Origin: a virus
DNA: 21,039 nt
Strand: one strand, 5' to 3'
Virus record (IMG/VR): IMGVR_UViG_3300045988_137034
Location: 1 to 21,039 of that record
How positions within the stretch are numbered: position 1 is the first letter of the stretch; every line of letters starts with the position of its first letter. A program made the position numbers and the translations under genes. The notes beneath the pieces are model-generated. The model saw only the letters and a program-made list of their open reading frames with translations, was not told where the DNA came from and did not search any database. Below are positions 5,297 to 21,039 of this stretch, piece by piece.

Positions 5297-7477
5297 TTAT
5301 TTACGATAAGTATCTTGAGAAGTTTCTACATTAATTGTATAGTAGAACTTATTCTTACCTTGATTAGTATAAGTTTTATATTCACAATTTGTATCTGTAA
5401 TTAATACTGGAGTAATAGTATTATCTTTAAGATTATGCAAATATACTTTAGTACTCTCAATTAAATTAAACATCTTAGAAGCTTGAATATCATTTAAATA
5501 ACCAGTATAAAGAATCCAGCTTGAAGTTATAGTATTTAAATACTTATTCCTTGCAAATTCTTGAGATGTATTTAATACTTTGCGAGTATATGTTTCAGAT
5601 TTAATTTCATCAGTCTTTCTAACATTACCCTCAACAAGTAATGAATCCCATCCTCCTGCTGAATTAGTATAATATAATACATAATCTTTACCTGTGGTAT
5701 CTATATCATATCTAATCTGTCTATCACTAATATTTCCACCTTCTACAAATCCTACTATTAAATAGCTCCCACAAGGCCATAGTTTATTGCTTAAATCTTC
5801 TGTATATGTATATCCATTAATTCCAGAATTTAAACTAATATCTATAGCAGTTGATGTTCCATCTACATAAAAAAATCTATTAACAACTCCCGTTCCAGTT
5901 GGTAAAATTCAACTTGCTACTAAATATTGTCTTGGATCAACTAAACCAGTAATAGGATCACTTAACATAGTACCTTTAGTCAAATCTCTATCTTTATAAC
6001 TCCAGTCATTGAAGAAAGTAATTGGTTTTTCATTTCCACTAGATGTTATCAAAGTAAATGGTTTCAAATATTCTGGAGATACTATTGTTTTTGAAGTATT
6101 AAATATAATTCCATTAGATAGATAATTCTCAGCAACATTATTTAATAAAAACTCTACTCTATCAGTTTCAGGATATTTATAAGCCTTGCCAGCATAAACC
6201 ATATCTCCTGCATAATCTAGATGATATTCAATAAAATCTGAACTGATTATCTCATTCCAAACATAATCTTTCCAAATAGGAGATATATCAGATTTAACAG
6301 ATTGTGTAATATTAATAGATAAATTAATAATACTTGAACTATTCTTTATAACAGATACTCCAATAGTTGCTTGTCTAGAAGATAAACCTGAATTTTCTGC
6401 AATGTTCAAACTAATAGTTGCTACACCTTGAGGATTCACAGAGAACTTCTGACCACTAATCCAACCTACAGGAATGCTAAATACAACATCATCTAAGTTG
6501 TTTGAGCCTGTACCAGTTATATTTAATGTAGATGCAGTTCAACTTACTTCATAATTAGTATTAGGAATCATTAAAGATGTTGCAGCTTGTTTAATTGGAA
6601 CTGTAGCTTCAAGATTATAACCTCCAGAAGTTGTTGCAGTAACCATTGCACTAAACTCTAAATTATTAGTAGTTTTATTCTCTGGAACAGCTAATACAAA
6701 ATAGTTATCAACAATATCCTTTTTAATATTACTAGCTTGAGGGCAGGTAACATTAAATGAGGTAATTGTTTCTTCTGCTTTAGTTGTACTTAAATGGAAT
6801 TCTTCAGTAACAAAAGCAGATGCTCCATAAGTTCCAGATGAAGGAGTTACTACTAGCTTTAAATCTTCTGGAGTATTACTTTTTTCAATAGTAAAGCCAT
6901 AACTATAAGAAATAAACTTATTAGTTTCATAATAAGCTCCTAATTGGATAGTTCCAGTTAAATCTGTATTCCATTGAGTATTAGCTCTTACTGTGAATTT
7001 AAACTTAATAGAGCAAGAATCCCAATCCAGAACTTCCATATTAACTAAAGCTGTAGCATTAACAACTGCTGCATCTCATTTAATAATATCTGATCTATTT
7101 AATATATACTCTACTGTATATTCTCCACCAGTATTTGGTACTTTAATGGTGCCATTAGCAGGATAATATCCAGGAGCTTTACTATGTAAATTAATTGGTA
7201 AATCTTCCCCTAATAAAGCAGTAGTAATACCTCTAGGATAAAAATGAAATACAGTAGAAGAATCAGTAGTTATTGTTGTAGGAGATAAAAATTGTATTGT
7301 ACATCCTTCTTTACTTGGATCCTGTATAGTTACATTTAAAGGCCCTTCTTCAGTATAATCATCTCCCCAAGTCCAATAATCATATTCTCCAGTAATTCCC
7401 CATCCAGGATTATTCCATTTAACAGGAAAACTCCTTGATGCATTATATATTCCTAATTTACTTGGTATAAATGCCAT
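5297..7477 (-). CDS. Large tail/surface protein (726 codons) with Ig-like/BACON-like beta-sandwich repeats; 3 in-frame TGA
   Basis: Track ORFs 7076..7477, 6539..7039 and 5909..6439, plus an untracked segment 5297..5908, share one frame. They are joined by TGAs at 7076-7078, 6539-6541 and 5909-5911 (...SDIIK-W-DAAVVNATALVNMEVLDW..., ...NYEVS-W-TASTLNITGTG..., ...YLVAS-W-ILPTGTGVVNRFFYVDG...). The gene ends ...YRK-TAA at 5297-5299. Strings such as SIKFKFTVRANTQWNTD and ATISLNIAENSGLSSRQATIGV resemble BACON/Ig-like repeat signatures (recollection only, not searched). Confidence 0.65.
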
Positions 7478-7968: not shown

Positions 7969-8008
7969 TTTTGTTAAAATATATTATTTTATATATTAGT
8001 AGCTAATG

Positions 8009-8035
8009 AAAATAGGGAGGTTTACTCCCTATTTT
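8009..8035. terminator. Bidirectional intrinsic terminator hairpin (11-bp stem, 5-nt loop, A-tract/T-tract flanks)
   Basis: AAAATAGGGAG-gttta-CTCCCTATTTT: perfect inverted arms at 8009-8019 and 8025-8035. It lies about 200 nt downstream of the 8233..8874 gene and just upstream of the structural operon start at 7968. Confidence 0.7.
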
Positions 8036-8232
8036 ATATGTAACTTTTTTATATTATCTTAGTACCAAATATGAGTAAAAAGGTTACAGTTAATGTTTTC
8101 TTTTTCATTCTTCAATCTGTCTATTTTCTTCATTAGCTTTATCTATAACATAGCATATAAGATTCAGGAACTCTTTAATCTGCATATCATATATCTGATG
8201 TCAATTAAATCTGGTAACTTCACTAACTCTGT

Positions 8233-8874
8233 CTATTCAGATAATTCAGCTTCATTTTTGAGTAAAAGGATTAATCGTCTCGTCTGTATTAAGCTCTTCA
8301 GAAGTTTCCTCCTTTCCAGTTTGTCCTTGGTTTTCCTTAGTCTCTTCTTCATCTCCCTTTCCGAAGAGTGTAGGGTACTCAGCGTTGATACTTGCAATAA
8401 GTTTACAAAAAAAAACATTATGTCTGAAAATATATCTATTGTTAGATGAGTATTTAAGAATTCTGCCTCATCAATAGGGTCATAATCTTCTCCATACTTC
8501 TTTCCATTAGGTAGTAAGAAACAAGCTGCTAGATTAGGCATAAAATCATCATACTGCTTATAAAAATTCTGAAAGTCAATATATTGACTGGCCGTCATCT
8601 TATTAACATTAAAAAAGACTTTATATTCTTTATTTCCAATATTATAAGTAGTTTCTGGAGTTTTTGGCTTATAGGGGGTCTCTATAAATTTAAGATTATT
8701 TATAAACTCTTGTAGCTTGTTTACTTCCATATTAGTTATATCTTCTATAGGTATATCACTAAGTACAGATACCATAGCTAAATTCATATCTAATTCATTT
8801 TCCCAGTCTTTTCGTATTATCTCAAACAGTCTTTTATAATGAGATAAATCCATTTCATTCCAATTCTTTATCAT
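8233..8874 (-). CDS. Hypothetical protein (213 aa) translationally coupled to the large terminase
   Basis: Intact standard ORF ending in TAG. Its ATG (8874..8872) overlaps the terL TAA (8876..8874) as TAATG. Basic helical C-terminus (KKRLRKTKDKLERRKLLKSL). No family recognised. Confidence 0.6.
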   Translation of the reverse strand: MIKNWNEMDLSHYKRLFEIIRKDWENELDMNLAMVSVLSDIPIEDITNMEVNKLQEFINNLKFIETPYKPKTPETTYNIGNKEYKVFFNVNKMTASQYIDFQNFYKQYDDFMPNLAACFLLPNGKKYGEDYDPIDEAEFLNTHLTIDIFSDIMFFFVNLLQVSTLSTLHSSEREMKKRLRKTKDKLERRKLLKSLIQTRRLILLLKNEAELSE

Positions 8875-10121
8875 TATTTAATTGCAATATTATAAGTTCC
8901 TTTATTTGTATTTAAAGCATCATAAGCTAACATTAAAGATATACAAGTATCATCATTAAAGCCAGATGGAGCATTATATGATACATTTCCAGTCTTTGGA
9001 TTATAACTGGCTTCATATAGTCTTAATTCATTTAATAGTTTATCATCCTTTAAAATACCAATCTTTTCGTTTTCTAATGCCGCTTGTAGCTTATTTACAA
9101 TAGCTGCCTTAGACTTATTAGTAGTTAAGAATCTTATAATCCTGATTTTTAGATTCTTCCGAACTAACATATCATAAAACACTGAACCTATTGAGTTTTG
9201 TTCGACTTGAACTATCTTTATAAATCCCTGATACTCAGTAAATATATTTGTCAGTAAATCAACTTGTTCTGTTGGAGTTTTGTCGTTAAAATACTTTATA
9301 AAGACCATCTGCCCATTTTCATTTAAAGCTGTAATACAAGTATAGTCTTTACCAGAACCAGTAGCCCAGTCAACTCCAATATAGAGATTATGATATTCAG
9401 GTTTTTTATCAATTATACAGTTAGCTATATTATTAAATAGGCAACCATCATCATCTGCAAACTCTCCAAGATATTCAGTTCTAAATTTATTTTTGGAGGT
9501 TGTAAGGCGATACATTTCAAGTTTATCCTCACTTAACAGCATAGAAGTATCTTCTAATGCTCAATCAAAGGATTGATAATATTTACTAAAATTACCATCA
9601 AAGCCCTTTTTAAAGCATTCATAAAAGAATCCTTCTCTAAACCTTGGAGTACTAATTATAAGTATCGGAGCATTCCATACATCAGTGGTAGGCTTAATAA
9701 TTTCAAATACTTCATCTTTAAGATAAGCTGCCTCATCAAGTACTAATAATCCACTGACTGAGAATCCTCGTAATGAATCCATTTGTTCTCCAGATCTAAA
9801 TAGTATAGAACTGCCATTATTAAACTCTAATTCTAATAAGGTTTCATTCTTTCTCTTTAATATATCAGAGTCTATAACAGCTTGTACAAGTTCTTTAAAT
9901 ACCTTTCTAGATTGTCCAAGAGTTGGTTCAACTATACAATTAACACTCCCAGGATAATTTATAGCGAATCTCAATAATTCATTTTCTGCCAAGAACGATT
10001 TACCTACCTGTCTCTTTGCTTTAATTGTAAAGATTTTACCAGACCTATATGAGTCATTCATAGCAGTATGTACCTTTAATTGATAGATAAATGGGCTATA
10101 TCCTTTATATATTTTTGTCAT
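8874..10121 (-). CDS. terL: Terminase large subunit, reconstituted across one in-frame TGA (9561-9563)
   Basis: Track ORFs 9561..10157 and 8874..9542 are in frame: ...KYYQSFD-W-ALEDTS-MLLSEDKLEMY.... Walker A AKRQVGKS, Walker B LLVLDEAA, and nuclease-domain acidic motifs IGVDWATGSGKDY and FNDDTCISL. The start is taken at MTKIYKGY (10121, 17-nt overlap with terS); ATG 10157 is the alternative. Confidence 0.85.
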
Positions 10122-10557
10122 TGTTAATTGGATCTCCAAATTTAAACTGGACTTCATTATTCTGAATAGCTACAATAGTCTCAGGTTGATTTAATCCAAA
10201 CATACTATTTATAGTCTTAATAATCTCATTTGCAGCTCTAATATCTCCCTTACTAATAGCAGTATCCAGTAATGATTCCAATCTTGATAATTGTATATGT
10301 CTAAGGTTTTTTATAAGGTTATCATTCTTTTCAGCAATTATCTTATAAGCTTCTCCAATATATCTTGCAGCTGTTGATTGGCTTACATTATATTTACTTT
10401 GAAGTTCTTCACTTACTTTATTCCTTGACCATCCTTTGTTAAATAACCTTGCAGCATAAAGATATTTAGTCTTTACTTCGTCTATTTGTTCCTTTTCTAC
10501 CTCTGCCTTTTTCGGTCTCCCTGTTTTCTTCGGCAGTTCCTGATTCTTTACTTTCAT
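10105..10557 (-). CDS. terS: Terminase small subunit candidate (HTH DNA-binding protein directly upstream of terL)
   Basis: 150 aa. Basic N-terminus (KKTGRPKK), HTH-like WSRNKVSEELQSKYNVSQSTAARYIGEAY, helical oligomerisation-like C-terminal part. Overlaps the terL start. Confidence 0.6.
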   Translation of the reverse strand: MKVKNQELPKKTGRPKKAEVEKEQIDEVKTKYLYAARLFNKGWSRNKVSEELQSKYNVSQSTAARYIGEAYKIIAEKNDNLIKNLRHIQLSRLESLLDTAISKGDIRAANEIIKTINSMFGLNQPETIVAIQNNEVQFKFGDPINNDKNI

Positions 10558-10890: not shown

Positions 10891-11220
10891 TTAATTAATA
10901 AGTTTGTATATAACATCTATCAACTTAGTAGATGCATCTTTTAATAATATCATAATATCTTTAATAATTGGAGTCATAAATGCTAATAATGCAATATATC
11001 CAACCATTAAAATTGAAAATTGACTTGTAATAAGAATATATAGTAATCCAATTCACCAAGTCATACACAAACTGCAATCTAAAGGTTTGAGTCTTCAATC
11101 TTCTTTATATGGTATACCTTTAAATAGCATTTTTCAAATACTATGTTTAAAACTATCTAAAGCTCCAGATAAATCAATTATAAAAACTATTATTGCAGTT
11201 ATTATAAATAATTCTAACAT
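10891..11220 (-). CDS. Small multi-pass membrane protein (109 aa) with a C-x-x-C...WW motif; 3 in-frame TGA
   Basis: From ATG 11220..11218 to TAA 10893..10891, every triplet was checked. TGAs at 11134-11136, 11095-11097 and 11053-11055. Translation: MLELFIITAIIVFIIDLSGALDSFKHSI-W-KMLFKGIPYKED-W-RLKPLDCSLCMTW-W-IGLLYILITSQFSILMVGYIALLAFMTPI.... It resembles the KP-x-x-C-x-x-C-x-x-W membrane family (DUF1360-like, recollection only). Confidence 0.55.
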
Positions 11221-11699
11221 AATCTTCATACATAATTATAACCTGTTTTATATTTGCCATATAAACAAGCTCGAATTGAATAATCACACTTACCTAAAGC
11301 TTCCGCAGCTTCTTTAATAGAATTATACTTTTTAACTAGAGTTCCGTTAAGATCATATTGAGCTACAGGTTTTGAAAGGTAAGAAGAAATCTTTTTATTT
11401 CTAGTTCCATAATTTGTATTATATTTCCTAGTACATCATTCTAGATTTTCAACTCTATTGTTTAACTTATTTTCGTCAATATGGTTTACTTCTGGTAAAT
11501 TATATATATTTGGTATAAATGTTTCAGCTACTAATCTATGTATAGACTTCATTTTAACTTTTCCATTTTTTCATAGTCCTACTGCTAAGTAGTTATTTCT
11601 AATAGTAGGTTTAATAAATTTATTTGTCCTTATACTATAAACTTCTCCGATATTATTTACTTTATAAAGACCTTCATAATTAGCTATATCCTTCCACAT
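11214..11699 (-). CDS. HNH homing endonuclease (161 aa); 3 in-frame TGA
   Basis: MWKDIANYEGLYKVNNIGEVYS (NUMOD4-like N-terminus), IHRLVAETF, EVNHIDENKLNNRVENLE-W-CTRKYN (HNH_3-type motif, with W encoded by TGA at 11436-11438), and a C-terminal HTH-like region. Other TGAs at 11571-11573 and 11226-11228. Ends in TAG at 11214-11216. The start overlaps the upstream gene by 16 nt. Confidence 0.85.
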
Positions 11700-11938
11700 A
11701 TTTTATTTCTAATATTACTTATACACCTTGCTATGGTAGTATGACTAATTCCTAATATTCTTCCAACTTCTCTATAACTGTGATATTCAGCATATAATAT
11801 GATTACTGTCTTATCTGCCTTATTAAGCTCAAGCCATTTTGGATATATACTTAATAATCTGTCATCTGTATTCGTAAACATATCATAGTCTATTTCATAC
11901 TCATTAAGTAAATCATCAATATTAATCTTCCTTTTCAT
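11684..11938 (-). CDS. Sigma-70 region-4-like / LuxR-type HTH transcription regulator (84 aa)
   Basis: ...DKTVIILYAEYHSYREVGRILGISHTTIARCISNIRNKI matches the region-4 HTH pattern. Intact standard ORF ending in TAG. Both ends are overlapped by HNH genes. Confidence 0.55.
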   Translation of the reverse strand: MKRKINIDDLLNEYEIDYDMFTNTDDRLLSIYPKWLELNKADKTVIILYAEYHSYREVGRILGISHTTIARCISNIRNKICGRI

Positions 11939-12437
11939 AATACTTTCATTTAAATCCTTTGGAAGTTAATTGTCTTCCTTTTAAACAAGCAATAATGTTT
12001 GATATAACAAATCCATTTCTCTTTAATTCATTTATTGAAGGTCATACTTTAATAATATTGTTATCTGTATCTAACTGCACAATTCGCTTGGAGCTTTTAT
12101 TATTCTGGCAGTTTTTAACAAAATTATTAATTCTATTGCCGTAAGTAAGATTATAAGACCTTGTACATCATTCTAAGTTTTCTATAACATTATTGCATTT
12201 ATTTTCATCAATATGATTTATTTCACAATAACTGTTAGGATTTGAAAGAAACGCTTCTGCTACTAGTCGATGTATATAAAAATTTTTTCTACCTTGTTTA
12301 TTATATAAACAAACAAAAGAATATCCACTATTGGATTGCATAGGTTTAATAACTCCTCTAACACTTTTAACTCTGCCTAAAGTGCTAATCTGGTAGTTCG
12401 GGTAATTCGTTATATTCTTCCAGATCTCCATCATCAT
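11922..12437 (-). CDS. HNH homing endonuclease (171 aa); 3 in-frame TGA
   Basis: Track ORF 12168..12437 stops at NVIENLE-TGA. The frame continues -W-CTRSYNLTYGNRINNF...IIKV-W-PSINELKRNGF...KGFK-W-KYYEKED-TAA. TGAs at 12168-12170, 12042-12044 and 11946-11948. IHRLVAEAF and EINHIDENKCNN are paralogous to the 11214..11699 copy. Confidence 0.85.
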
Positions 12438-12699
12438 TAATTTTATCTGTTATAAAAATATCATAATATCGTTTATATGCATAATAGTATCTGCTATTCT
12501 TACTGAACCAGTTGTTTTTAAATACTCTTACAATTCAGTATTTTAATTCATTTTTGGCCAATAAACTATTTAATTTGGCATTATCTGTCTCTAGTAAAGC
12601 CAGTAGACAAATTTGAAAACAATCATCATCCATCCCAAATTTAACCTTTAGTTCTAAGCAGAATTCATAATATTTGGTAATAATTTCATTATTCGTCAT
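12385..12699 (-). CDS. Hypothetical protein (104 aa); 1 in-frame TGA
   Basis: From ATG 12699..12697 to TAG 12387..12385, every triplet was checked. TGA at 12535-12537 (…NELKY-W-IVRVFKNNWF…). It fills an otherwise uncoded 250-nt gap. Its 3' end overlaps the HNH start by about 50 nt. Confidence 0.45.
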
Positions 12700-13123
12700 T
12701 TGCTATATAATTACTAAATTCTGTATTTATATCTATCTTAATAGCTTTCTTTAAAGATAACTCTGTTTTTAATGAATATCCATAAGTTCCTCCAAAATCT
12801 GTTGTAGAACACCCATATTTCATAGAGTCTTTTATAAAGGCTGATTTTATATCTTTAAATATATATATACCATCATCGAATATTATTACTAATATAGAAT
12901 TATTTCTGGATAGTAGATCAAATTTTTCTCTATTAATAATAGTTGTTGGATATTTATTAGAATTAAATCTCCTTCTTTTAACTTCTATTATATAATCAAT
13001 TCCATTCCAATTAAATGTTCCATCATATCTGGAATAATTATCTTTATATCATTCTATTTCTATATTATATTTATCTTTAAATAGATTCTTTATAAAGACT
13101 AAGCTTCTTATATCTGTTTTCAT
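12689..13123 (-). CDS. PD-(D/E)xK nuclease-like protein (144 aa); 1 in-frame TGA
   Basis: From ATG 13123..13121 (TAATG overlap with the upstream gene) to TAA 12691..12689, every triplet was checked. TGA at 13049-13051. SRYDG...IDYIIEVKRR fits a D...(D/E)-x-K restriction-endonuclease-fold motif. This is a motif-level call only. Confidence 0.4.
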
Positions 13124-13362
13124 TATTTTATATTATTAATTTTAAGGGTTAAATCACAATATTCTTCATATAAATTAGATACTTCTTCACTTGCAGGATT
13201 AAACCACATTACTGAATCTAATTTATGCTTTAACTCTGCTCTTTCTAATCTTAATTCAAATGTTTTAGTTTGGTACTCTCCATAAGCATTATATACTCTA
13301 ATACCAGCTATTCCCATTAAAATAATCGTTGCAATAATTGCATATTTAAATATAGTTTTCAT
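13123..13362 (-). CDS. Small N-terminally membrane-anchored protein (79 aa)
   Basis: Intact ORF; TM helix YAIIATIILMGIAGI followed by a helical region. It is the first gene after the 13363-13460 intergenic region. Confidence 0.5.
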   Translation of the reverse strand: MKTIFKYAIIATIILMGIAGIRVYNAYGEYQTKTFELRLERAELKHKLDSVMWFNPASEEVSNLYEEYCDLTLKINNIK

Positions 13363-13396
13363 AATTTATAAATTTTAATTGTTAATATTATATCTT

Positions 13397-13413
13397 TTAT
13401 TGTAATACAATAA
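13397..13413. promoter_or_regulatory. Perfect 17-bp palindrome, operator-like site in the intergenic region
   Basis: TTATTGTA-A-TACAATAA: 8-bp arms around a single central base. A 1-nt loop is not a plausible RNA hairpin, so a dimeric-protein binding site is more likely. It lies 35 nt upstream of ATG 13362. Confidence 0.35.
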
Positions 13414-13460
13414 ATAATGAAAAGTTTTTAATTCTCAAAATATTTAAGCAATTATTTTTA

Positions 13461-14207
13461 TTAAAATTCAAAAATATCTTTATTGTCGTATTCAATATCT
13501 TGTTTTCTGTCTAATCCAAATAAACCAGCAAGTATGTCATTATAGATATTATTAGCTTTTGGACTTAAATAAAGCTTATTCTTTACAAAATAAACGGTTT
13601 GCTTATATAATTTATTATCAGAGGGAGTAGAAAGCACATTCTTAATAGTTCTAATATTCTGCTCATTTAAATGCACTACTTCATTCTTAATAAACTCTTC
13701 ATATCTTATCTGATAACCATCTTCTACTTTATCTAAGTAAAATCCATACTCTTTTAGCTTATTAAGCTTATTATTTAATAGATTATATGTAATATCTAAT
13801 TCTTTAGCTATATCCTTCTTATTTAACTTAATTTTTAAAGTATCATCAAATGCCAAACTTCTAATTCTTAAGGCAAATCCCAATAAATTTAGATCCTTAT
13901 CAATATTATTAATTACAAAATCTAATTTAACCATAAAAAATGTATTTAGTATTGATTTATAGGTATTAGTCTTTATAACATTACCATTATCTTTAATTAT
14001 AACCTTAGTAGAGCAGTCTAATAACTCTGCTTTATAAAGATGACTATTCATCTTTTTAATATAATCTACAGAGCATTTTAAATACTTTGCAAAGTAATCT
14101 CTTGTATATACTTTATTTTGAAGCTGTGTATAAGATTGTAAAGCCATATAATATGCTTCTTTGTCATTCAAATCCTTTACTCGTTTATCAATTTTTAAAT
14201 AAATCAT
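13461..14207 (-). CDS. Winged-HTH DNA-binding protein, replication-initiator-like candidate (248 aa); no TGA and no Trp at all
   Basis: Intact ORF ending in TAA. HTH-like KKDIAKELDITYNLLNNKLNKLKEYGF. It sits directly beside the iteron-like repeat cluster at 14254-14326. The function is inferred from context only. Confidence 0.4.
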   Translation of the reverse strand: MIYLKIDKRVKDLNDKEAYYMALQSYTQLQNKVYTRDYFAKYLKCSVDYIKKMNSHLYKAELLDCSTKVIIKDNGNVIKTNTYKSILNTFFMVKLDFVINNIDKDLNLLGFALRIRSLAFDDTLKIKLNKKDIAKELDITYNLLNNKLNKLKEYGFYLDKVEDGYQIRYEEFIKNEVVHLNEQNIRTIKNVLSTPSDNKLYKQTVYFVKNKLYLSPKANNIYNDILAGLFGLDRKQDIEYDNKDIFEF

Positions 14208-14253
14208 AGTGCTAAATTTTTTACTGGAACGAAAGCTCGAAGAGCTGAGTCCT

Positions 14254-14287
14254 ATAGTATTACTTTTATTATAGTATTACTTTTATT
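14254..14287. repeat. Perfect tandem direct repeat, 2 x 17 nt (ATAGTATTACTTTTATT)
   Basis: Copies at 14254-14270 and 14271-14287 are identical, in the divergent intergenic region. Confidence 0.9.
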
Positions 14288-14290
14288 AAT

Positions 14291-14326
14291 GGGTACTGAA
14301 TCGACAGGTCGGTCGGGTACTGAATC
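14291..14326. repeat. Two identical 12-nt direct repeats (GGGTACTGAATC) separated by a 12-nt GC-rich spacer
   Basis: Copies at 14291-14302 and 14315-14326. The spacer gacaggtcggtc, together with its flanking bases, can form a small CGAC/GTCG hairpin. This is locally the most GC-rich stretch of an otherwise AT-rich region. Confidence 0.9.
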
Positions 14327-14344
14327 AATATATGTCTAAAAATA

Positions 14345-14369
14345 GGGTTTGGGTAGCTAATCCAAACCC
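14345..14369. terminator. Hairpin GGGTTTGG-(9 nt)-CCAAACCC with A-tract/T-tract flanks; terminator-like element in a divergent intergenic region
   Basis: Arms at 14345-14352 and 14362-14369, preceded by AAAAATA and followed by CTTTT. No gene on either strand obviously runs into it, so its role is unclear (terminator of a short RNA, or part of an origin). Confidence 0.4.
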
Positions 14370-14543
14370 CTTTTAGCACTAATAAAAGTAGTAATTATTT
14401 CTAATTACAAGGCAAAGATAACATTATTTTTTTTAAAATCAAAATTTTTACAATAAAAAAATAACTTTTTATTAAAAATATTTTATTAAAAATAATATTA
14501 CAATTCTTGAATATATTATATATTAATAAAAAAGAATAAAATT

Positions 14544-15329
14544 ATGAATTGGAAATCAACAAACATTAAAGGATATTCAGTTAGTGATGAAGGTCAAATA
14601 AAGAACGAACTAACAGGAAAAGTATTATCTCAGTTTAAGAATAATATGGGGTATTATTTAGTAAGCATACAAGATAAAAAGTATCTTGTACATAGATTAG
14701 TAGCAGAGGCGTTTTTAAATAAACCTAATAAATGTAATATAGTAGAACATAAAGATGATGATCCCACAAATAATTGTGTAGATAATCTTATGTGAAGTAC
14801 TCAGAAATTGAATTTAAATAGGCAAGGAAGGCTTGAAAAGTTAAAAAGGCATTATCAGTCCAATGAATGAAAAGAAGCTAGAAAAAAGGCTTTAGAAACA
14901 ATGAAAGCAAATGGATTTAAAAAGACTAAATCAGATAAGCAAAAGGCTAAAGAAGCGGCCAGATTAGATAGAATATCTAAAGAAAGAGAGAATATAAGAC
15001 CTACTCTCGACCAACAATATGATGCGTTTATTAATCCTTTAATTGATTTACTTAAATCTGGATATAGTTTAAAGAGAGCTGCACAATATTTTGGAATAAA
15101 TGATACTACTGGCATTACTTATTTTTCTAAAAGATATTATGAAGAAACAGGAATTAAACTTATTACATATAAGATTAAAAAATCGTCGTTTTCAAATGCA
15201 GAAAAATTAATGAATAAAATTAAAGAATTATATAATCAAGGTTTAACTGTAGAGGAAATAAGTGAAGAAGTAAATAGATCAATTAATATTGTTAATAAGT
15301 ATATAAAACTATGGAAGATTCATATTTAA
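14544..15329 (+). CDS. HNH homing endonuclease with extended C-terminal HTH region (261 aa); 2 in-frame TGA
   Basis: Track ORFs 14544..14795 and 14901..15329 are in frame (offset 357 nt). The junction reads ...NNCVDNLM-W-STQKLNLNRQGRLEKLKRHYQSNE-W-KEARKKALETMKANG..., with TGAs at 14793-14795 and 14868-14870. LVHRLVAEAF and VEHKDDDPTNNCVDNLMW form the HNH_3-type core. HTH-like SLKRAAQYFGIN and LTVEEISEEVNRSINIV. Ends in TAA at 15327-15329. Confidence 0.8.
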
Positions 15330-15493
15330 ATAGAATTGCGGATATTAAAGAAACAATTAAACAAACTGAAGAGTATATTAAAGAATTGGATAAATGAATA
15401 CTCAAATGTAAAGAAACTACTAAAAGATTTGGTGATATTATAGATAAAGTATTAAAAGATAAAGATTATATGTCTATTTCTAAATTTGATTAA
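15311..15493 (+). CDS. Small hypothetical protein (60 aa); 1 in-frame TGA
   Basis: ATG 15311 to TAA 15491-15493; TGA at 15395-15397 (…KELDK-W-ILKCKE…). Helical and charged. Overlaps the HNH 3' end by 19 nt. Confidence 0.35.
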
Positions 15494-15495
15494 TT

Positions 15496-15636
15496 ATGAA
15501 TGATTATTTATTTAAAAAACTTGAAGAACTAGAATATAGAATAGTTCAATTAGAAAACCAGAATAAAGGTTTAGTCTGGGAAGAAGTAGAAGAAATGCCA
15601 AAACCAGAAATTTCTAATGCAACTTATATTGACTAA
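15496..15636 (+). CDS. Small hypothetical protein (46 aa)
   Basis: ATG 15496 lies 2 nt after the previous stop; TAA at 15634-15636. MNDYLFKKLEELEYRIVQLENQNKGLVWEEVEEMPKPE..., coiled-coil-like. Confidence 0.3.
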   Translation: MNDYLFKKLEELEYRIVQLENQNKGLVWEEVEEMPKPEISNATYID

Positions 15637-15637
15637 T

Positions 15638-15781
15638 ATGAAGTATCAAACATATAAATTATGCTTAAATGGAATAAATTACGTTTATGTAATTCCTGAA
15701 AATAGTAAATTCTTAGTAGACTTACAAACAGGAGATCTAATACCTAAAGAAGATGATAAGTTATTTGAAATAATGGAATAA
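15638..15781 (+). CDS. Small hypothetical protein (47 aa)
   Basis: ATG 15638 lies 1 nt after the previous stop; TAA at 15779-15781, followed immediately by the terminator hairpin. Confidence 0.3.
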   Translation: MKYQTYKLCLNGINYVYVIPENSKFLVDLQTGDLIPKEDDKLFEIME

Positions 15782-15785
15782 ATGA

Positions 15786-15813
15786 AAATAGGAGGGTATA
15801 TGCCCTCCTATTT
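15786..15813. terminator. Bidirectional intrinsic terminator between convergent transcription units
   Basis: AAATAGGAGGG-tatatg-CCCTCCTATTT: perfect 11-bp arms at 15786-15796 and 15803-15813. It lies 4 nt after the plus-strand TAA (15781) and 4 nt after the minus-strand TAA (15818). Confidence 0.75.
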
Positions 15814-15817
15814 CTGT

Positions 15818-16408
15818 TTAAGCGTATTTTCATTTAAATCCTTTTACTTTATAGCCTTCTCTAATTGCTTTAGAAATAGAATTTTTATGAACTCCAACAT
15901 CTAAAGAAGCACTAACAGCACAGTCATATTCTTTAATAAGAATATCGTCTTTATACGCACCTACTTTTTTAGCTCTAGGATTATTGCCAAAAGAATTATT
16001 TAAATAACTCAAATCTTTACCTTTATGACTATTACTCATCTTTTTTCGAGTTTCTTCTGATGGATGTCTTCCAATACATTTGGCTCTAATCTTATCTTTT
16101 CTTTCCTGAGTGAATGCAATACCTAAGGTGCCGTCACCTCCATCTGTAGCATTATATCCATATTTGGGATCTCTAGTATTATATTTATGAATAAGAATTT
16201 TTTCTAAAGTCTTGGCACAAGGTTCTGGCAAATTATCTTTAATTATAATATGTTCAAAATTATCCCATCCATATTTTGTTATAGCGTTTCAAAACGGCTG
16301 TTTTCTATAACCAAGACCATTTGCTCATCGTATTTCTGGCTTCTTACAAGTAATGCCAATATATTTCTTACCATTAATCTTGTTTAAATGAATATATATA
16401 CTATACAT
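15818..16408 (-). CDS. GIY-YIG homing endonuclease (196 aa); 3 in-frame TGA
   Basis: MYSIYIHLNKINGKKYIGITCKKPEIR-W-ANGLGYRKQPF-W-NAITKYGWDNFEHIIIKDNLPEPCAK...KVKGFK-W-KYA-TAA. TGAs at 16325-16327, 16289-16291 and 15830-15832. GIY (IYIH) and YIG motifs, the R-W and KYGWDNF motifs, and NUMOD-like HxSEETRKKMS are present. The track ORF 15830..16231 is only the middle piece. The ATG at 16408 overlaps the endolysin stop. Confidence 0.85.
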
Positions 16409-16850
16409 ACAAATTACCTTTTTTTCTTCGTTGTAGTCCTTTAATACTATATAAAGCAATATGCACTCACTGAGATGTACGACTTTTTTCTATAAAGCAT
16501 TCGTCAAAATTATAATTCTCTATTTCATCTGTTATTCATACTTGGAATATCTTCATTTGACCGTTACTTGGAATTATATCTGCTGCATATCCTGTTAGAT
16601 GGGCAGATGTCAAAGATCCTCCTACAGCTTTATTAAGCTCATTACATCTATAACCTGAATTCACACTTATTGCTGGATTCCCCAACCGATTAACATCACA
16701 ATACTCTGCCCAATCACTTCTTAATGGATCTAAAAGTTTCTCGACTAACTCTATAAGGTGTTCAGTAATCTCTTTATTTGGAGTATTATCTATCTTCTTA
16801 ATAGAAGCTGTATCAGATCTTGTTAATTCACTAATAGTAAAATATTTCAT
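16401..16850 (-). CDS. Endolysin, zinc peptidase M15 family (149 aa); 2 in-frame TGA
   Basis: SGYRCNELNKAVGGSLTSAHLTGYAADI carries the H-x6-D zinc motif. The track ORF stops at ...MKIFQV-TGA (16536-16538). The frame continues -W-ITDEIENYNFDECFIEKSRTSQ-W-VHIALYSIKG...-TAG (16401-16403), with the second TGA at 16467-16469. W-V-H supplies the expected C-terminal His ligand region of this family. Confidence 0.8.
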
Positions 16851-17011
16851 TATTTAATAATATCTTTAAGCATAACATAACGGTAAAATAAATGACATCC
16901 TGCACCAAGTGCTATGAGTACTAATGTAATCCAAAATGGAATTACTTTTACCATTAAACATACTAAGATTATAATTACTATTGCTATTAAATATTTCATC
17001 CAATATTTCAT
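16850..17011 (-). CDS. Holin candidate (53 aa, two TM helices)
   Basis: MKYWMKYLIAIVIIILVCLMVKVIPFWITLVLIALGAGCHLFYRYVMLKDIIK. Its TAA overlaps the endolysin ATG as TAATG. No TGA. It is below the ORF-track size cutoff. Confidence 0.6.
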   Translation of the reverse strand: MKYWMKYLIAIVIIILVCLMVKVIPFWITLVLIALGAGCHLFYRYVMLKDIIK

Positions 17012-17014
17012 AAC

Positions 17015-17668
17015 TTATTTATTTAAAATTATACTTACTTTAATTCCTGCATCTCTTAGTTTTACTCAAGTATCAACTGGCATCTCATTATCACAATAAG
17101 ATAATCCTAAAACTCCAATATCCCTATCTTCTGACTTTAAATAGAATATTGCAATCTTATTAACATCATTAGATTTAAATGTATAATACATTCTCCTATC
17201 TAATTCCTTTATATCTTCAACATCTCCCAATCATCCTCCTTTTTTAGATGTTTCCAATATAAATAAATAATCAGATAATAGGAAATCTTTATAGTGTTTA
17301 GAAACTGAAGCAACTCCAGGTTCTGTTTCTTCACTATTCATAATCCCATAAGTAAATGGAAGTCCTCCTAATCCTGAAGTGCCATTATGATACTCAATAA
17401 CTCAAGCTCTATCTGCATTCGTATCATTTAAAAGATCTTTAAGGATATATCTAACCTTAAGATCTGCTTCTTGTCTTATTAATTGATTAGTATTATGGAC
17501 CGTTTTTATATAGTTTGTAACTTTATCATATATTATTCCTGGATTAGTACTTATAATTATTACATAAGAAATAAATATAAATCCAAATCCACCTTTAATT
17601 ATTTTTCACAGTCCATATTTATCTACTCATTCTAATACCTTTCCAAACCAGTTTAATTTATTTTCCAT
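17015..17668 (-). CDS. N-terminally membrane-anchored protein (217 aa) heading the lysis cassette; 5 in-frame TGA, invisible in the standard-code track
   Basis: From ATG 17668..17666 (TAATG overlap with the upstream GIY-YIG stop) to TAA 17017..17015, every triplet was checked. TGAs at 17627-17629, 17606-17608, 17402-17404, 17231-17233 and 17066-17068. MENKLNWFGKVLE-W-VDKYGL-W-KIIKGGFGFIFISYVIIISTNPG.... Function unknown. Confidence 0.5.
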
Positions 17669-18252
17669 TACATATCATACTTAAAGGTATATCCTTTAGT
17701 TTGTTTTTGTCTGCCACTTAAAACTGAAGATATTAAAGAAGAAGTTATGTTTAACTCTCTTGCTGCTGATCTTATACTTTTATAAGATTTTATAAATCTT
17801 CCATCTAAAGTGTATTGACTAATAGCTTTAGTTCCATAGTTTTGATTTTTCTTGCGTATTAATTCCTTAGTTTCTTCTGAATGATGCTTCCCATAAAATG
17901 GATTTTTATTTCCTATTCTAGTTTTAGCAAATTCAGAAATAATAACTTTAGTTTCATTAGAAACTATCGGATGATTACTTGTGTCAGTTCTATTATAACC
18001 AAATCTTAAATCTGTAGTATTATAATAGCTAAAGAAGTATTTTTCAAGATATTTCATTTCCGATTCACTATTTACATAATAAATAGTGTGTTTAATATTG
18101 TTTCAACCGTACTTTTTAATTGGTCTGTAAACAAATTGATCTTTATATCCTTCTCCACCTCTTCATCTACTATTTACTGACTGAGTGGTTAATCCAACAT
18201 ATCTTTTACCATTTGGAAAAGTATGAATATAAACTACATACTGTCTTGACAT
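17668..18252 (-). CDS. GIY-YIG homing endonuclease (194 aa); 2 in-frame TGA
   Basis: MSRQYVVYIHTFPNGKRYVGLTTQSVNSR-W-RGGEGYKDQFVYRPIKKYG-W-NNIKHTIYYVNSESEMKYLEKYFF.... TGAs at 18163-18165 and 18103-18105. NUMOD-like GKHHSEETKELIRKK and a C-terminal HTH. The ATG at 18252 overlaps the upstream gene by 19 nt. Confidence 0.85.
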
Positions 18253-18659
18253 AAGCCTAATGTGTTGTCAACTTGGAAATCAACTCTAACAAATACTCCG
18301 CAGGTAATATCTTTGAACTTTTGATAGAATGGAGTATAAATTAAAGGATAAGCTATTTCAACTTCTGGATATAGGTTATTAAATCGATTAATTATATTAG
18401 TTAATGCTAATATTCCAGCTGATTGCTCTTCTAGCTGATTATTATCAGTCTCATCCCATCTTGCTATAAAATAGAGATTTAATGAGTAAGTAATAGTATC
18501 TTCATCCATATTAAATGTATTTGGCGTTATATAAAATACATTATATTCAATAGTTGGAATACTATTAAGTTCATATATATCTTTACTTCCTACAAAATTA
18601 ATATTAGGTTCTTCAAGAGCACAGGCTTTTAAATTGTTTATTAATTCAAAATACGTCAT
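18234..18659 (-). CDS. Hypothetical virion-module protein (141 aa), possibly head-closure or tail-completion
   Basis: Intact ORF ending in TAG. The position between connector-like gene and lysis cassette is the only functional hint. Confidence 0.5.
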   Translation of the reverse strand: MTYFELINNLKACALEEPNINFVGSKDIYELNSIPTIEYNVFYITPNTFNMDEDTITYSLNLYFIARWDETDNNQLEEQSAGILALTNIINRFNNLYPEVEIAYPLIYTPFYQKFKDITCGVFVRVDFQVDNTLGLCQDSM

Positions 18660-18660
18660 A

Positions 18661-19152
18661 TTAAATGTATTTAAAAGTTAATTTATTCTTATATTTTCTA
18701 CCTGTTTTTAAACAGTAACGTATACTTTTAGAGTCTATATTTAACCTACGAGCACATTCATTAATAGATGGATATTCTATATCATTACATAATATTTTAT
18801 GAGATTGCTTATAAATTGAATACCTAGTATTATATGAAATAGTACACCATTCTAGATTACATACTCGATCGTCATTCTTTACTTCATTTTTATGATTAAC
18901 AACTGGATAGTTAAATGGATTCTCTATAAAAGCATATGCTACTAATCTACATACTCTATAATAGTAGGGTTTACTATCTTTCATTAAAGTAACCCACTTA
19001 TATCCATCTTTATCAATGTTAGGTTTTAAAATACGCTCATTTACTGGGCAAATACACCCATTCTTACTAAGTCTAGCTCTTGCAACTGATTTAACTTCTC
19101 CAGAATCACTCACTTGGTAATAACCTTCAAAGTCTTTAATATCTTTCCACAT
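18661..19152 (-). CDS. HNH homing endonuclease (163 aa), the only endonuclease here with no TGA
   Basis: MWKDIKDFEGYYQVSDSGEVKS (NUMOD4-like), VCRLVAYAF, VVNHKNEVKNDDRVCNLEWCTISYN (all three Trp encoded by TGG), and a C-terminal HTH INECARRLNIDSKSIRYCL. Confidence 0.85.
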   Translation of the reverse strand: MWKDIKDFEGYYQVSDSGEVKSVARARLSKNGCICPVNERILKPNIDKDGYKWVTLMKDSKPYYYRVCRLVAYAFIENPFNYPVVNHKNEVKNDDRVCNLEWCTISYNTRYSIYKQSHKILCNDIEYPSINECARRLNIDSKSIRYCLKTGRKYKNKLTFKYI

Positions 19153-19154
19153 AA

Positions 19155-19817
19155 TTACTTTTTCTTATTCTTATTTGAACTTGGAAAATCATATCTAGAT
19201 CTTAGAGAATTATTATATAGTCCCTTCGAGCGTATACCTCCAAGCCAGATACCACAACTACTTGAACTGTATAAATTAGGATACATATCTTTAAGAGGTT
19301 TATATGAATATAATTCAGGAAAATCATTATAATATGTAATAACCCAATCTTGTAGTCTTGCTTTAAAGAAATCTGCTTTATCTCTATAATATTTCTTAAT
19401 AAGATTAACTTGACTTGCATCTGCAGCTATATCTTTCTCATCATCAGTCCTCATAACTCCAAAATTACTAAGTTTAAAAGAGATAGGAATAGTAATTTCA
19501 CTTAATACTTGATAAAGTAAATAAGGCTGAATATAGTAATCTAATAATTCTTTATATCTATGATTTTCTGGATCATCTATAGATGTTGGATCATAAATAG
19601 GAGGTTCTATTGGATGAACTGGTTTATTTGGATCTTTCCAATCAATTACTAATTTCTGAATCTTCTCTAAGAGCTTAGTTCCAATTAATGACTGAAGCTC
19701 AATATCTTGTGCAAGTTTGATTGCAGACTGAAGATATTTACCAGAAACATTATTATCTAAATTAGATTCTGATTTTATATAATCTTCAGATATTAATAGT
19801 ACATTTCTATATTCCAT
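19155..19817 (-). CDS. Head-tail connector/adaptor-like protein (220 aa)
   Basis: The N-terminal pattern LISEDYIKSESNLDNNVSGKYLQSAIKLAQDIELQSLIG resembles gp6-like connector N-termini, and the gene lies downstream of the portal. Motif-level call only. Confidence 0.4.
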   Translation of the reverse strand: MEYRNVLLISEDYIKSESNLDNNVSGKYLQSAIKLAQDIELQSLIGTKLLEKIQKLVIDWKDPNKPVHPIEPPIYDPTSIDDPENHRYKELLDYYIQPYLLYQVLSEITIPISFKLSNFGVMRTDDEKDIAADASQVNLIKKYYRDKADFFKARLQDWVITYYNDFPELYSYKPLKDMYPNLYSSSSCGIWLGGIRSKGLYNNSLRSRYDFPSSNKNKKK

Positions 19818-20460
19818 AATAATATTTATAATTTTTGCAGGGTTTATTTTTTCTACAAGATCTAGATATACTAGAAGAATCTACATTATTCTTCTCTCCA
19901 GCTTCCTTAGCTGATTTATACTCACAAATAAAATTACCATCTAAATCATACTTATATACTTTTTTGCACTGACGTTCTGAAATTAGTTGTTTTTCTTTAT
20001 CTGAGAGTTTCATACCTTTATTTCAAGGAGTTTTGCCTAATCTTGCCTCCCTCATTTTACGCTTGCTTTCATCTGAATGCTGTTTACCATAAAATGAGTT
20101 ATTTTCTCCTGATCTTATAATTCTAAGACTATCTTTATAATCTTGTGAAAAAGAATATCCACAAGTACCGTCTCCTCCATCAGTTAAATTATACCCATAT
20201 TTTGGATTTCTAGTATTATACTTATAAATCAGAATCTTTTCTAAAGTCTTAGCACAAGCTTCTGGAAGATTATCTCTAATTATAATATGCTCAAAATTAT
20301 CTCAACCATATTTTTTAATTGCTCTGCTAAAATAAAGATTATTCTTGTAACCTTGACCTTTAGTTCCCCATCTATTATTTAAAGTAAGTGATGTTATTCC
20401 AAAATATAATTTATTATCAGCTATATTCTTATGGCAGTACACTGTATAATTATTCAACAT
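19807..20460 (-). CDS. GIY-YIG homing endonuclease (217 aa); 2 in-frame TGA
   Basis: MLNNYTVYCHKNIADNKLYFGITSLTLNNRWGTKGQGYKNNLYFSRAIKKYG-W-DNFEHIIIRDNLPEACAKTLEKILIYKYNTRNPKYGYNLTDGGDGT...GKTP-W-NKGMKLSDKEK.... TGAs at 20302-20304 and 20023-20025. The track shows only the last 68 aa. The ATG at 20460 overlaps the portal stop by 11 nt. Confidence 0.85.
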
Positions 20461-21039
20461 TTTCTGCATTTTCTGACATTCCTTTTGGAGTTAAACTAAA
20501 TGGTTCAATAGTAATACTATTCTTAATGCCGAAGATTTTATCAAATGAGTCACAAATTTCTGATTGTATTGGGCGTACAAAAGTACGATTATATAGCTTA
20601 AATGCTTCATTAAACTCATTTTCATTAAATCCTGAGCTATAGTTTAAACCGAACAACGAAGGATTAGCTCGGAAGGCACAGAATATTTGATCTCTTGTTC
20701 TTTCAGATAATGATTGATATTTTTCATCAAAATCATCAGAATCTAACCTTTCAATTGTGGTCTTATTTGCCTCATCTGCATTATATGAAATCAATATTCT
20801 GCCAGCATTCTGATAACCAGAGAACTTCTCATTAATATTCCTCTCAATCTCCTCTCTAATTTCATCTGTAGGCTCTCCATTATTAAAGTTAATAATAAGA
20901 TTGCCCATAAATCCATTATTGATATTGTTTAAATGGAACTCATTAATATTTTTCTCAGTTTCACAAGATAGAATAGCAGCTCCGTAAACAGGAATAGGAT
21001 ATACTCCTCTTGTTATATAACCTTTATTATAAAATATAC
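20450..21039 (-). CDS. Portal protein, C-terminal part (N-terminus beyond the window end)
   Basis: The frame is open from 21039. ...GVYPIPVYGAAILSCETEKNINEFHLNNINNGFMGNLIINFNNGEPTDEIREEIERNINEKFSGYQNAGRILISY... and ...FNENEFNEAFKLYNRTFVRPIQ... match the usual portal core/clip-region pattern as I remember it. Ends in TAA at 20450-20452. Confidence 0.65.
   Translation of the reverse strand, partial: IFYNKGYITRGVYPIPVYGAAILSCETEKNINEFHLNNINNGFMGNLIINFNNGEPTDEIREEIERNINEKFSGYQNAGRILISYNADEANKTTIERLDSDDFDEKYQSLSERTRDQIFCAFRANPSLFGLNYSSGFNENEFNEAFKLYNRTFVRPIQSEICDSFDKIFGIKNSITIEPFSLTPKGMSENAENVE

Follow-up and report, generated by a model that had tools for sequence, protein, structure and literature searches.

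Most of what is known about free-standing homing endonucleases comes from large cultured phages, T4 among them. The seg and mob genes of T4 spread by intronless homing, in which the enzyme cuts at a distance from the insertion point and flanking markers are co-converted (PMC2988022). The DNA considered here, referred to as the window, is a stretch of 21,039 nucleotides (nt) from a virus (IMG/VR record IMGVR_UViG_3300045988_137034, positions 1 to 21,039), in which seven nuclease genes lie between positions 11214 and 20460. Judging from their sequences and from related genomes, these are very probably free-standing homing endonuclease genes of a TGA-recoded tailed phage of about 30 kilobases (kb), moving by intronless homing of the T4 seg/mob type.

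Like the T4 seg (GIY-YIG) and mob (HNH) genes, the seven genes are intergenic between conserved genes, belong to the same two families and carry modular DNA-binding domains. They are present in some relatives and absent from others, and different endonuclease genes swap at one locus. Co-conversion of a flank from a cleavage site some distance off the insertion would be a further common property, here deduced from population patterns. As with T4 mobE, expression would depend on transcription of the upstream host gene, to judge from the gene arrangement. The differences from T4 are in scale and setting. T4 has 15 such genes in a genome of 169 kb, and the load here is much denser, at 19.5% for the window and as much as 11% for near-complete relatives. 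The genes lie in structural, lysis and packaging operons, whereas in T4 they lie mainly among nucleotide-metabolism genes, and their reading frames depend on TGA being read as tryptophan (Trp).

The four HNH genes resemble I-HmuI, the HNH nicking endonuclease of Bacillus phage SPO1 (PDB 1U3E), in having a NUMOD4 sheet, an HNH core and a C-terminal helix-turn-helix (HTH) tail. They differ from it in being free-standing, whereas I-HmuI is inside a group I intron, and in carrying Asn or Glu at the position of Asp74. In ICP1 and other phages, islands of homing endonuclease genes and nuclease genes at recombination boundaries have been described (Barth, Dunham & Seed 2023, PMC10448857). As in that case, the nuclease genes here cluster by essential genes, bound blocks of high identity and shuffle heads and tails; the linked tracts are 30 to about 260 nt, not islands of more than 10 kb, and T5orf172 occurs only in the relatives. 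Pectobacterium phage CB7, cited among the highest loads, has 23 homing endonucleases making up about 7% of its 142.8-kb genome (PMC7344957). Most of the CB7 genes are likewise free-standing HNH genes, but some copies in CB7 are borne by introns or inteins and its genetic code is the standard one, and by fraction the load of the window is two to three times higher. Among TGA-recoded gut phages, only 35% have a detectable suppressor tRNA, and lysis genes are biased to the recoded codon (Borges et al., 10.1101/2021.08.26.457843). The window resembles these code-4 phages in its low GC (guanine plus cytosine) content, TGA as Trp, no detectable suppressor tRNA and a TGA-rich lysis-module gene (g217). 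Homing endonucleases were outside the analysis of Borges et al.; here they are the most TGA-rich gene class.

Seven intact nuclease genes read with TGA as tryptophan

The whole window was read with genetic code 4, in which only TAA and TAG are stops, and the minus strand then becomes a tight series of long open reading frames (ORFs). Under this code, all seven nuclease ORFs of a preliminary description of the window were found at the coordinates given there (Table 1), each with an ATG start and a TAA or TAG stop. In giving each neighbouring gene its own TAA or TAG, the description implied this dependence on code 4 and never stated it. The seven genes add up to 4,110 nt, in line with the estimate of roughly a fifth of the window, and occupy 44% of the stretch 11214-20460. 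Six are on the minus strand and one (HNH3p) is on the plus strand. No frameshift and no internal TAA or TAG is present in any of the seven, and all are full length with catalytic residues intact.

The assignment of the code does not depend on the nuclease genes. Long ORFs that need TGA read-through include the large terminase (TerL), tail proteins of 726 and 1149 amino acids (aa) and the M15 peptidase; TGA codons occur throughout the window, for instance within 8874-10157, 5297-7477 and 17015-17668. In the orthologous core genes of relatives, the codons aligned with window TGA codons were TGA (441) and TGG (174), with the others rare and Tyr codons a distant third. In the nuclease genes, in-frame TGAs stand at conserved Trp positions, NLE-W-CT in the HNH genes and R-W and KYG-W in the GIY genes; at the NLE-W-CT position, I-HmuI has W and the fourth HNH paralogue has TGG. 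Thus, TGA at the expected Trp positions, the alternation of TGA and TGG in orthologues and the long ORFs together show that the window uses genetic code 4.

With the standard bacterial code (table 11), six of the seven nuclease ORFs are broken by TGA, and only HNH4 is intact under both codes. tRNA scans of the window and 31 related loci found no tRNA gene, and hence no phage-borne TGA suppressor. Both observations could be taken to mean that the in-frame TGAs are real stops and that the window holds only fragments of decayed pseudogenes. This is extremely improbable, as essential genes also need TGA read-through and the TGAs stand at conserved Trp positions and alternate with TGG in orthologues. 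In addition, an independent ENA assembly has an identical stretch from portal through GIY3, DUF6712, HNH4, g141 and GIY2 to g217, and the gene calls made on it gave these products at full length.

TGA makes up 66% of the Trp codons in the nuclease genes, about twice its share in the core genes (24-41%, p about 1e-6 to 0.003). For representatives of the nuclease families, the TGA:TGG ratio was 65:34, as compared to 22:55 in the window core (p about 1e-6). HNH2 has three in-frame TGA codons, GIY3 has two, and HNH4 has none. The lysis-module membrane gene g217 is TGA-rich as well, with five TGA to one TGG. The GC content of the nuclease genes (27.6%) equals that of the rest of the window (28.5%), indicating that they are long-term residents of this gene pool.

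Table 1. Positions and properties of features in the window. Junction occupancy was counted for GIY or I-HmuI-like genes, per junction, in related genomes.
Feature	Position	Strand	Domains or description	Location	Family (members)	Junction occupancy
HNH1	11214..11699	-	NUMOD4 and HNH_3 (both above cutoff), NUMOD1	between 84-aa HTH gene and g112 membrane protein	9 (6)	g84HTH/g112mem, 13/36
HNH2	11922..12437	-	NUMOD4 and HNH_3 (both above cutoff)	between g104 and 84-aa sigma-r4-like HTH gene	14 (3)	g104/g84HTH, 3/36
HNH3p	14544..15329	+	HNH_3 above cutoff, NUMOD4 just below (22.1 vs 23.4 bits), long C-terminal HTH tail		15 (3)	
HNH4	18661..19152	-	NUMOD4 (E 5.5e-15), HNH_3 sub-cutoff (20.2 vs 24.8 bits)	between DUF6712 and g141	19 (2 in IMG/VR set)	DUF6712/g141, 3/40
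GIY1	15818..16408	-	GIY-YIG (27.5 bits, cutoff 22.6), NUMOD3	last gene of portal-to-lysis operon, right after M15 peptidase	6 (9)	M15/g60p, 20/31
GIY2	17668..18252	-	NUMOD3, NUMOD1, I-HmuI NUMOD-like tail	between g141 and membrane protein g217	8 (7)	g141/g217, 7/39
GIY3	19807..20460	-	GIY-YIG sub-cutoff (19.3 vs 22.6 bits), strong NUMOD3, NUMOD1	between portal and DUF6712	4 (11)	portal/DUF6712, 22/40
GIY3-linked tract	20450..20660	-	last ~200 nt	portal 3' end		
HNH4-linked tract	19155..19290	-	last ~135 nt	DUF6712 3' end		
HNH2-linked tract	12438..12699	-	at least 200 nt	3' two-thirds of g104		
GIY1-linked tract	16401..16500	-	last ~90 nt	M15 3' end		
Portal protein	20450 to window end		C-terminal part			
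DUF6712 protein	19155-19817		Pfam DUF6712 only			
g141			141-aa protein	between HNH4 and GIY2		
g217	17015-17668		membrane protein			
M15 peptidase	16401-16850		peptidoglycan peptidase			
g84HTH			84-aa sigma-region-4-like HTH protein	between HNH2 and HNH1		
g248	13461..14207	-	weakly HTH-like	alternative cassette with HNH3p only (window, contigs 133025 and 101844)		
TerL	8874-10157		large terminase			
Terminator-like hairpin	15785..15814	-	12-bp (base pair) stem, also inverted repeat I10	4 nt past GIY1 stop		

Domain architecture and catalytic residues

Four of the genes encode I-HmuI-like HNH proteins (NUMOD4 + HNH_3) and three encode Seg/I-TevI-like GIY-YIG proteins (NUMOD3/NUMOD1). Each protein is built from a nuclease head and NUMOD/HTH DNA-binding modules. 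No nuclease or intein domain was seen in the other proteins of the window. A joint profile of the four HNH proteins aligned end to end with I-HmuI (E 1e-32, profile positions 1-166), and the catalytic His and two Asn residues (H73, N85 and N94 of HNH1) are invariant, so that both the full-length architecture and the His...Asn...Asn motif of I-HmuI-like enzymes are present.

Across the three GIY proteins, Y5, Y16, G18, R27 (Arg-Trp), E69 and N86 are invariant. The proteins show the GIY-(10-11 residues)-YIG spacing, the Arg/Glu/Asn core, a NUMOD3 linker in all three and a DNA-binding tail, as in I-TevI and the Seg enzymes; the match in the linker is to the DNA-binding domain of I-TevI (1I3J, E 0.0014). 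Used alone as a query, the GIY1 catalytic domain matched no solved structure. GIY2 has no GIY-YIG match in Pfam; its catalytic domain is 42% identical to that of GIY1 (E 6e-23) and the protein matches PHROG 314 'homing endonuclease' (1.4e-25). GIY3 has an alternative ATG at 20469. The alignments thus speak against a refuting condition named in the preliminary description, the absence of catalytic residues, for the His/Asn residues of the HNH proteins and the Tyr/Tyr-x-Gly/Arg/Glu/Asn residues of the GIY-YIG proteins are conserved.

GIY1 (16085-16294) and GIY3 (20122-20331) have a catalytic core of 210 nt in common with 78% nucleotide identity, and the GIY1 copy of contig 111924 is even closer to GIY3 in this core. 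The likeness hints at recombination between the paralogues.

HNH3p has an extra HTH extension of about 100 aa as compared to I-HmuI. Its residues 157-220 form a 64-residue module shared with a 161-aa T5orf172-domain protein (36% identity, E 9e-7), which is found at the equivalent position in ten relatives and not in the window. The two have different nuclease heads on a common DNA-binding tail. HNH3p lies upstream of a conserved small gene (15311-15493). Together with g248, it stands in place of a 572-aa gene carried by 29 relatives. This opposite-strand gene, absent from the window (13461-15493 locus), has no Pfam match and contains GxGGTS and DEYH motifs.

Presence and absence at conserved junctions

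The nuclease genes were compared in 44 related IMG/VR contigs, mostly of 28-33.6 kb and mostly from one metagenome (3300045988), with the others from six further metagenomes; ORFs were called under code 4 and core and nuclease genes were mapped. Among 50,697 GenBank phages, there was no near-identity DNA match to the window, and TerL protein matches were at most 29% identical. Gene order is conserved in the relatives, and every junction is polymorphic for nuclease genes, with occupancy ranging from 3/40 to 22/40 (Table 1). The presence/absence comparison, set beforehand in the preliminary description, thus found each gene variable at its junction. The site of GIY3 is empty in 18/40 relatives, that of GIY2 in 32/39, that of HNH2 in 33/36 and that of HNH4 in 37/40. 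Outside the two IMG/VR members of its family (window and contig 133025), HNH4 is found in the ENA contig, with the same gene order. In relatives, nuclease genes also occupy sites at which the window has none, namely g144/g104 (18/34), g726/g1149 (5/26) and sites lying upstream of portal.

The 137 nuclease ORFs fall into 28 families (at least 70% identity), and each multi-member family is confined to a single junction; this holds for all members of the families of GIY1, GIY2, GIY3, HNH1 and HNH2. Several junctions host two to four different families. Two more HNH families share g84HTH/g112mem with that of HNH1, and M15/g60p, the site of GIY1, is occupied in other relatives by a second GIY family (13 genomes) or by a 112-aa classic HNH gene (PF01844; 14 genomes, e.g. 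contig 090152 25857-26195). In two relatives, the 112-aa gene lies beside a truncated GIY1; the window has no trace of it. A terminase-associated small HNH of the HK97 gp74 type (PF01844) was considered for the HNH genes of the window and rejected, as these are of the HNH_3 type and polymorphic.

Rfam searches of the window found no group I or group II intron at the gathering threshold or at E<=1. No other RNA family reached the gathering threshold either, and the sole match with E<=1 was a chance match to a long non-coding RNA. The neighbours of the nuclease genes are complete, distinct genes that abut in relatives with an empty site. The genes are therefore not intron-encoded, and the view that they are free-standing, outside introns and inteins, is upheld. 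Near-complete relatives have 0-6 full-length nuclease genes (0-11% of the sequence), and the window is near the top of this range. Genome length was not significantly correlated with nuclease-gene count (Spearman 0.21, p 0.51, 12 near-complete contigs).

The seven genes could instead have been domesticated to serve the phage, as weapons of marker exclusion or interference, packaging helpers or regulators, and be kept by selection on the phage. Seven full-length copies with intact catalytic residues, lying within essential operons without disrupting them and having a composition like that of the rest of the genome, would fit such a role, and published work has shown that competition and marker exclusion can be brought about by homing endonucleases of phages (PMC2988022, PMC10448857). 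Nevertheless, we consider domestication unlikely. Each gene is absent from most relatives, a near-complete genome of 29.3 kb has no GIY or I-HmuI-like gene at all, and truncated and deleted copies are common. The HNH genes near packaging genes belong to the HNH_3/I-HmuI type and differ from the small PF01844 type associated with terminases. Homing leaves room for a competitive benefit, which is no alternative to it.

Identity patches and upstream flanks linked to the nuclease genes

Six of the seven window genes have one or more copies with 95-100% nucleotide identity in genomes whose core genes are only 73-93% identical to those of the window. GIY3 is 100% identical over 663 nt in seven genomes with backbones 81-93% identical to the window, and GIY2 is 99.5% identical in contig 065523, the backbone of which is 73% identical. 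GIY1 is the exception, with copies 83-97% identical.

The high identity extends into the upstream gene. In the proximal 120 nt upstream, genomes with the same nuclease gene are 95-100% identical for GIY3, HNH4 and HNH2 and on average 81% identical for GIY1, as against 66-69% in genomes with an empty site. The next 240 nt, the distal flank, is similar between nuclease-carrying and empty-site genomes. No linkage to the nuclease genes was seen in the downstream flanks. Gene-conversion tracts, for which the preliminary description had proposed to look, were thus found in flanks linked to the nuclease genes.

The clearest case is the portal 3' end next to GIY3. In 15-nt bins, it is 99-100% identical in all GIY3 carriers and 40-80% identical in empty-site genomes of the same backbone, with a sharp switch. 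From this pattern we infer that 20450..20660 is the stretch between the putative cleavage site and the insertion point. At HNH4, the last 75 nt of DUF6712 is 100% identical in contig 133025, which carries HNH4, and 60-80% identical in 38 empty-site genomes; the proximal 120 nt gave 0.95 versus a mean of 0.69 (maximum 0.77). At HNH2, identity in the proximal 120 nt was 0.99-1.00 in two carriers, as compared to a mean of 0.68 (maximum 0.75) in 33 empty-site genomes, and in contig 101844 HNH2 and the g104 flank form a patch within an otherwise divergent backbone. The M15 3' end next to GIY1 is 70-100% identical in five of six carriers and 40-60% in most genomes with another or no occupant; the exception is contig 111924, in which the M15 allele is divergent throughout. 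For GIY2 (g141) and HNH1 (g84HTH), the linked upstream tract is at most 30 nt. As the linked tracts are consistently upstream, the cleavage sites are suggested to lie in the 3' ends of the upstream genes.

A patch with a defined downstream end is seen in contig 022758_000400. There, window-like sequence covers the final 420 nt or more of portal, GIY3 and ~135 nt at the start of DUF6712, after which the backbone is a different one; the portal fragment of this contig is window-like throughout, so that only the downstream end is defined.

Blocks of mosaic identity are found at a distance from nuclease genes as well, such as within TerL, and most contigs come from a single metagenome. Ordinary modular recombination or chimeric assembly could therefore be proposed, with the nuclease genes as passive cargo. 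This is very unlikely to be the explanation, for the families are strictly site-specific, and identity is highest over the nuclease gene and the flank directly upstream of it and falls within 30-210 nt. The same arrangement was also found in the independent ENA assembly and in contigs from six other metagenomes.

Decayed copies are present at several sites. At portal/DUF6712, contig 111924 has a deletion scar in which the first and last few codons of a GIY gene are left. At g144/g104, the C-terminal 92 residues of an HNH gene remain in contig 133025, and at g84HTH/g112mem two contigs have remnants of 33-39 residues. Contig 3300045988_111924 (L013/L053) also has a window-type g104 allele without HNH2, and thus appears to have lost nuclease genes from two sites. 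Together, these patterns are the expected stages of a homing cycle, namely invasion, spread with co-conversion, decay and loss.

Proposed mode of homing

Four properties of seg/mob-type genes, namely a nuclease domain, a place between conserved genes, presence or absence by site and horizontal spread with co-conversion of a flank, were found here, the co-conversion as a population inference and not in a cross. The layout is one gene per junction in long minus-strand operons, with one gene in a divergent plus-strand unit. We propose that, during mixed infection, the enzyme would cut the allele without the gene in a co-infecting relative, at a site within the 3' end of the upstream gene or close to it. 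Repair from the donor genome would follow, by which the nuclease gene and the stretch from cut to insertion would be copied. This obligatory co-converted stretch would be ~200 nt for GIY3, ~135 nt for HNH4, at least 200 nt for HNH2, ~90 nt for GIY1 and at most 30 nt for GIY2 and HNH1. Self-cleavage would be prevented by the variant 3' end that the donor allele carries, as the consistently upstream position of the linked tracts suggests. Expression would ride on read-through transcription of the host operon and on ribosomes terminating at the overlapping upstream stop. Copies would then decay by deletion, completing the homing cycle.

Several points weigh against homing as described. Three Pfam nuclease-domain matches are below the cutoff or absent (HNH_3 in HNH4, GIY-YIG in GIY3 and GIY2), although each of these proteins is backed by paralogue identity, the PHROG 314 match or the I-HmuI profile alignment. 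At the position of Asp74 of I-HmuI, the four HNH proteins have Asn, Asn, Glu and Asn. The proposed target sites and self-resistance derive from population patterns only, and ordinary recombination and common descent, instead of nuclease-initiated repair, could account for part of the flank linkage. At GIY2 and HNH1, the flank of at most 30 nt is equally explained by accommodation of the overlapping start codon. All relatives are metagenomic contigs, mostly from the one sample, and assembly chimeras of co-occurring strains could mimic some of the mosaicism.

Neighbouring genes and expression context

The nuclease genes lie between portal, structural, lysis and regulatory genes, as had been claimed. 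The label 'connector' given to 19155-19817 could not be confirmed; no usable match to a solved structure was obtained for DUF6712 or for g141. Of the six nuclease genes on the minus strand, five start within the preceding gene; the coordinate pairs quoted for this in the preliminary description are correct, and the overlaps are 11, 19, 8, 53 and 16 nt. HNH4 is the exception, starting at 19152, 2 nt past the DUF6712 stop. Most of these genes also overlap the following gene. Overlaps occur at 6/13 junctions without a nuclease gene too, and overlaps of at least 8 nt are modestly enriched at nuclease-gene junctions (8/11 vs 3/13, p=0.04). No gene in the window is preceded by a Shine-Dalgarno motif, and the sequences upstream of starts such as 11699, 16408 and 18252 are just A/T-rich. 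Of the earlier proposal of coupled translation, the overlaps are real; as overlaps and missing Shine-Dalgarno motifs are genome-wide, the nuclease genes may plausibly, but do not necessarily, be coupled in translation to the upstream genes.

The hairpin after GIY1 marks the end of the operon that holds four of the nuclease genes and is the only strong terminator found. A sigma-70 promoter scan returned fewer sites than shuffled sequence and was uninformative on promoters of the nuclease genes' own. With a single terminator after GIY1 and no promoter-like excess, the nuclease genes appear to be passengers of host operons. The order of the genes does alternate, as was pointed out earlier, but the regularity results from insertions that took place separately in a densely packed operon, as the sites are filled independently in relatives.

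Two further features were noted. TerL probably starts at its second Met (MTKIYKGY, about 10121) and not at the upstream ATG (10105-10157), because contig 133025 has a stop 11 codons past the upstream ATG; this shrinks the apparent 53-nt overlap with the preceding gene. Between the genes for proteins of 213 aa and 162 aa, there is a gap of ~267 nt without a called gene (7969-8232), the length of which is kept in 31/33 relatives. It has no Rfam match and is possibly a packaging or regulatory site.

The M15 peptidoglycan peptidase implies a walled host. No prophage relative turned up when 185,579 species genomes were scanned with TerL, either as one sequence or as an alignment. Just one related contig in IMG/VR is very long, contig 175865 of 148 kb; its upstream part (L063 1-5000) encodes collagen-repeat fibre-like proteins that also need code 4. 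It was considered as a prophage in a host genome and rejected, as the upstream flank itself needs code 4 and does not consist of host genes.

Significance

Apart from the very high density, the window is an ordinary example of homing endonucleases in a phage, and not a new kind of system. What stands out is the density and the setting in a small uncultured code-4 phage. With standard-code annotation, the nuclease genes and their essential neighbours would be rendered as fragments.

At least 28 site-specific families are distributed over at least 12 junctions of these 30-kb genomes. That no denser natural arena of competing homing endonucleases than this lineage has yet been described, and that the nuclease genes are also tied to the alternative code, is a bolder and rather doubtful reading. 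If it were true, recoding could keep the nuclease genes within the gene pool of code 4. With a host that uses the standard code, recoding could instead delay translation of the nucleases to late infection, together with the equally TGA-rich lysis genes.

The roughly 40 natural relatives provide ready allele pairs with and without each gene for each site. The lineage thus is a compact natural data set on the position of the cut relative to the insertion, the length of the co-conversion tract and the replacement among competing endonucleases.

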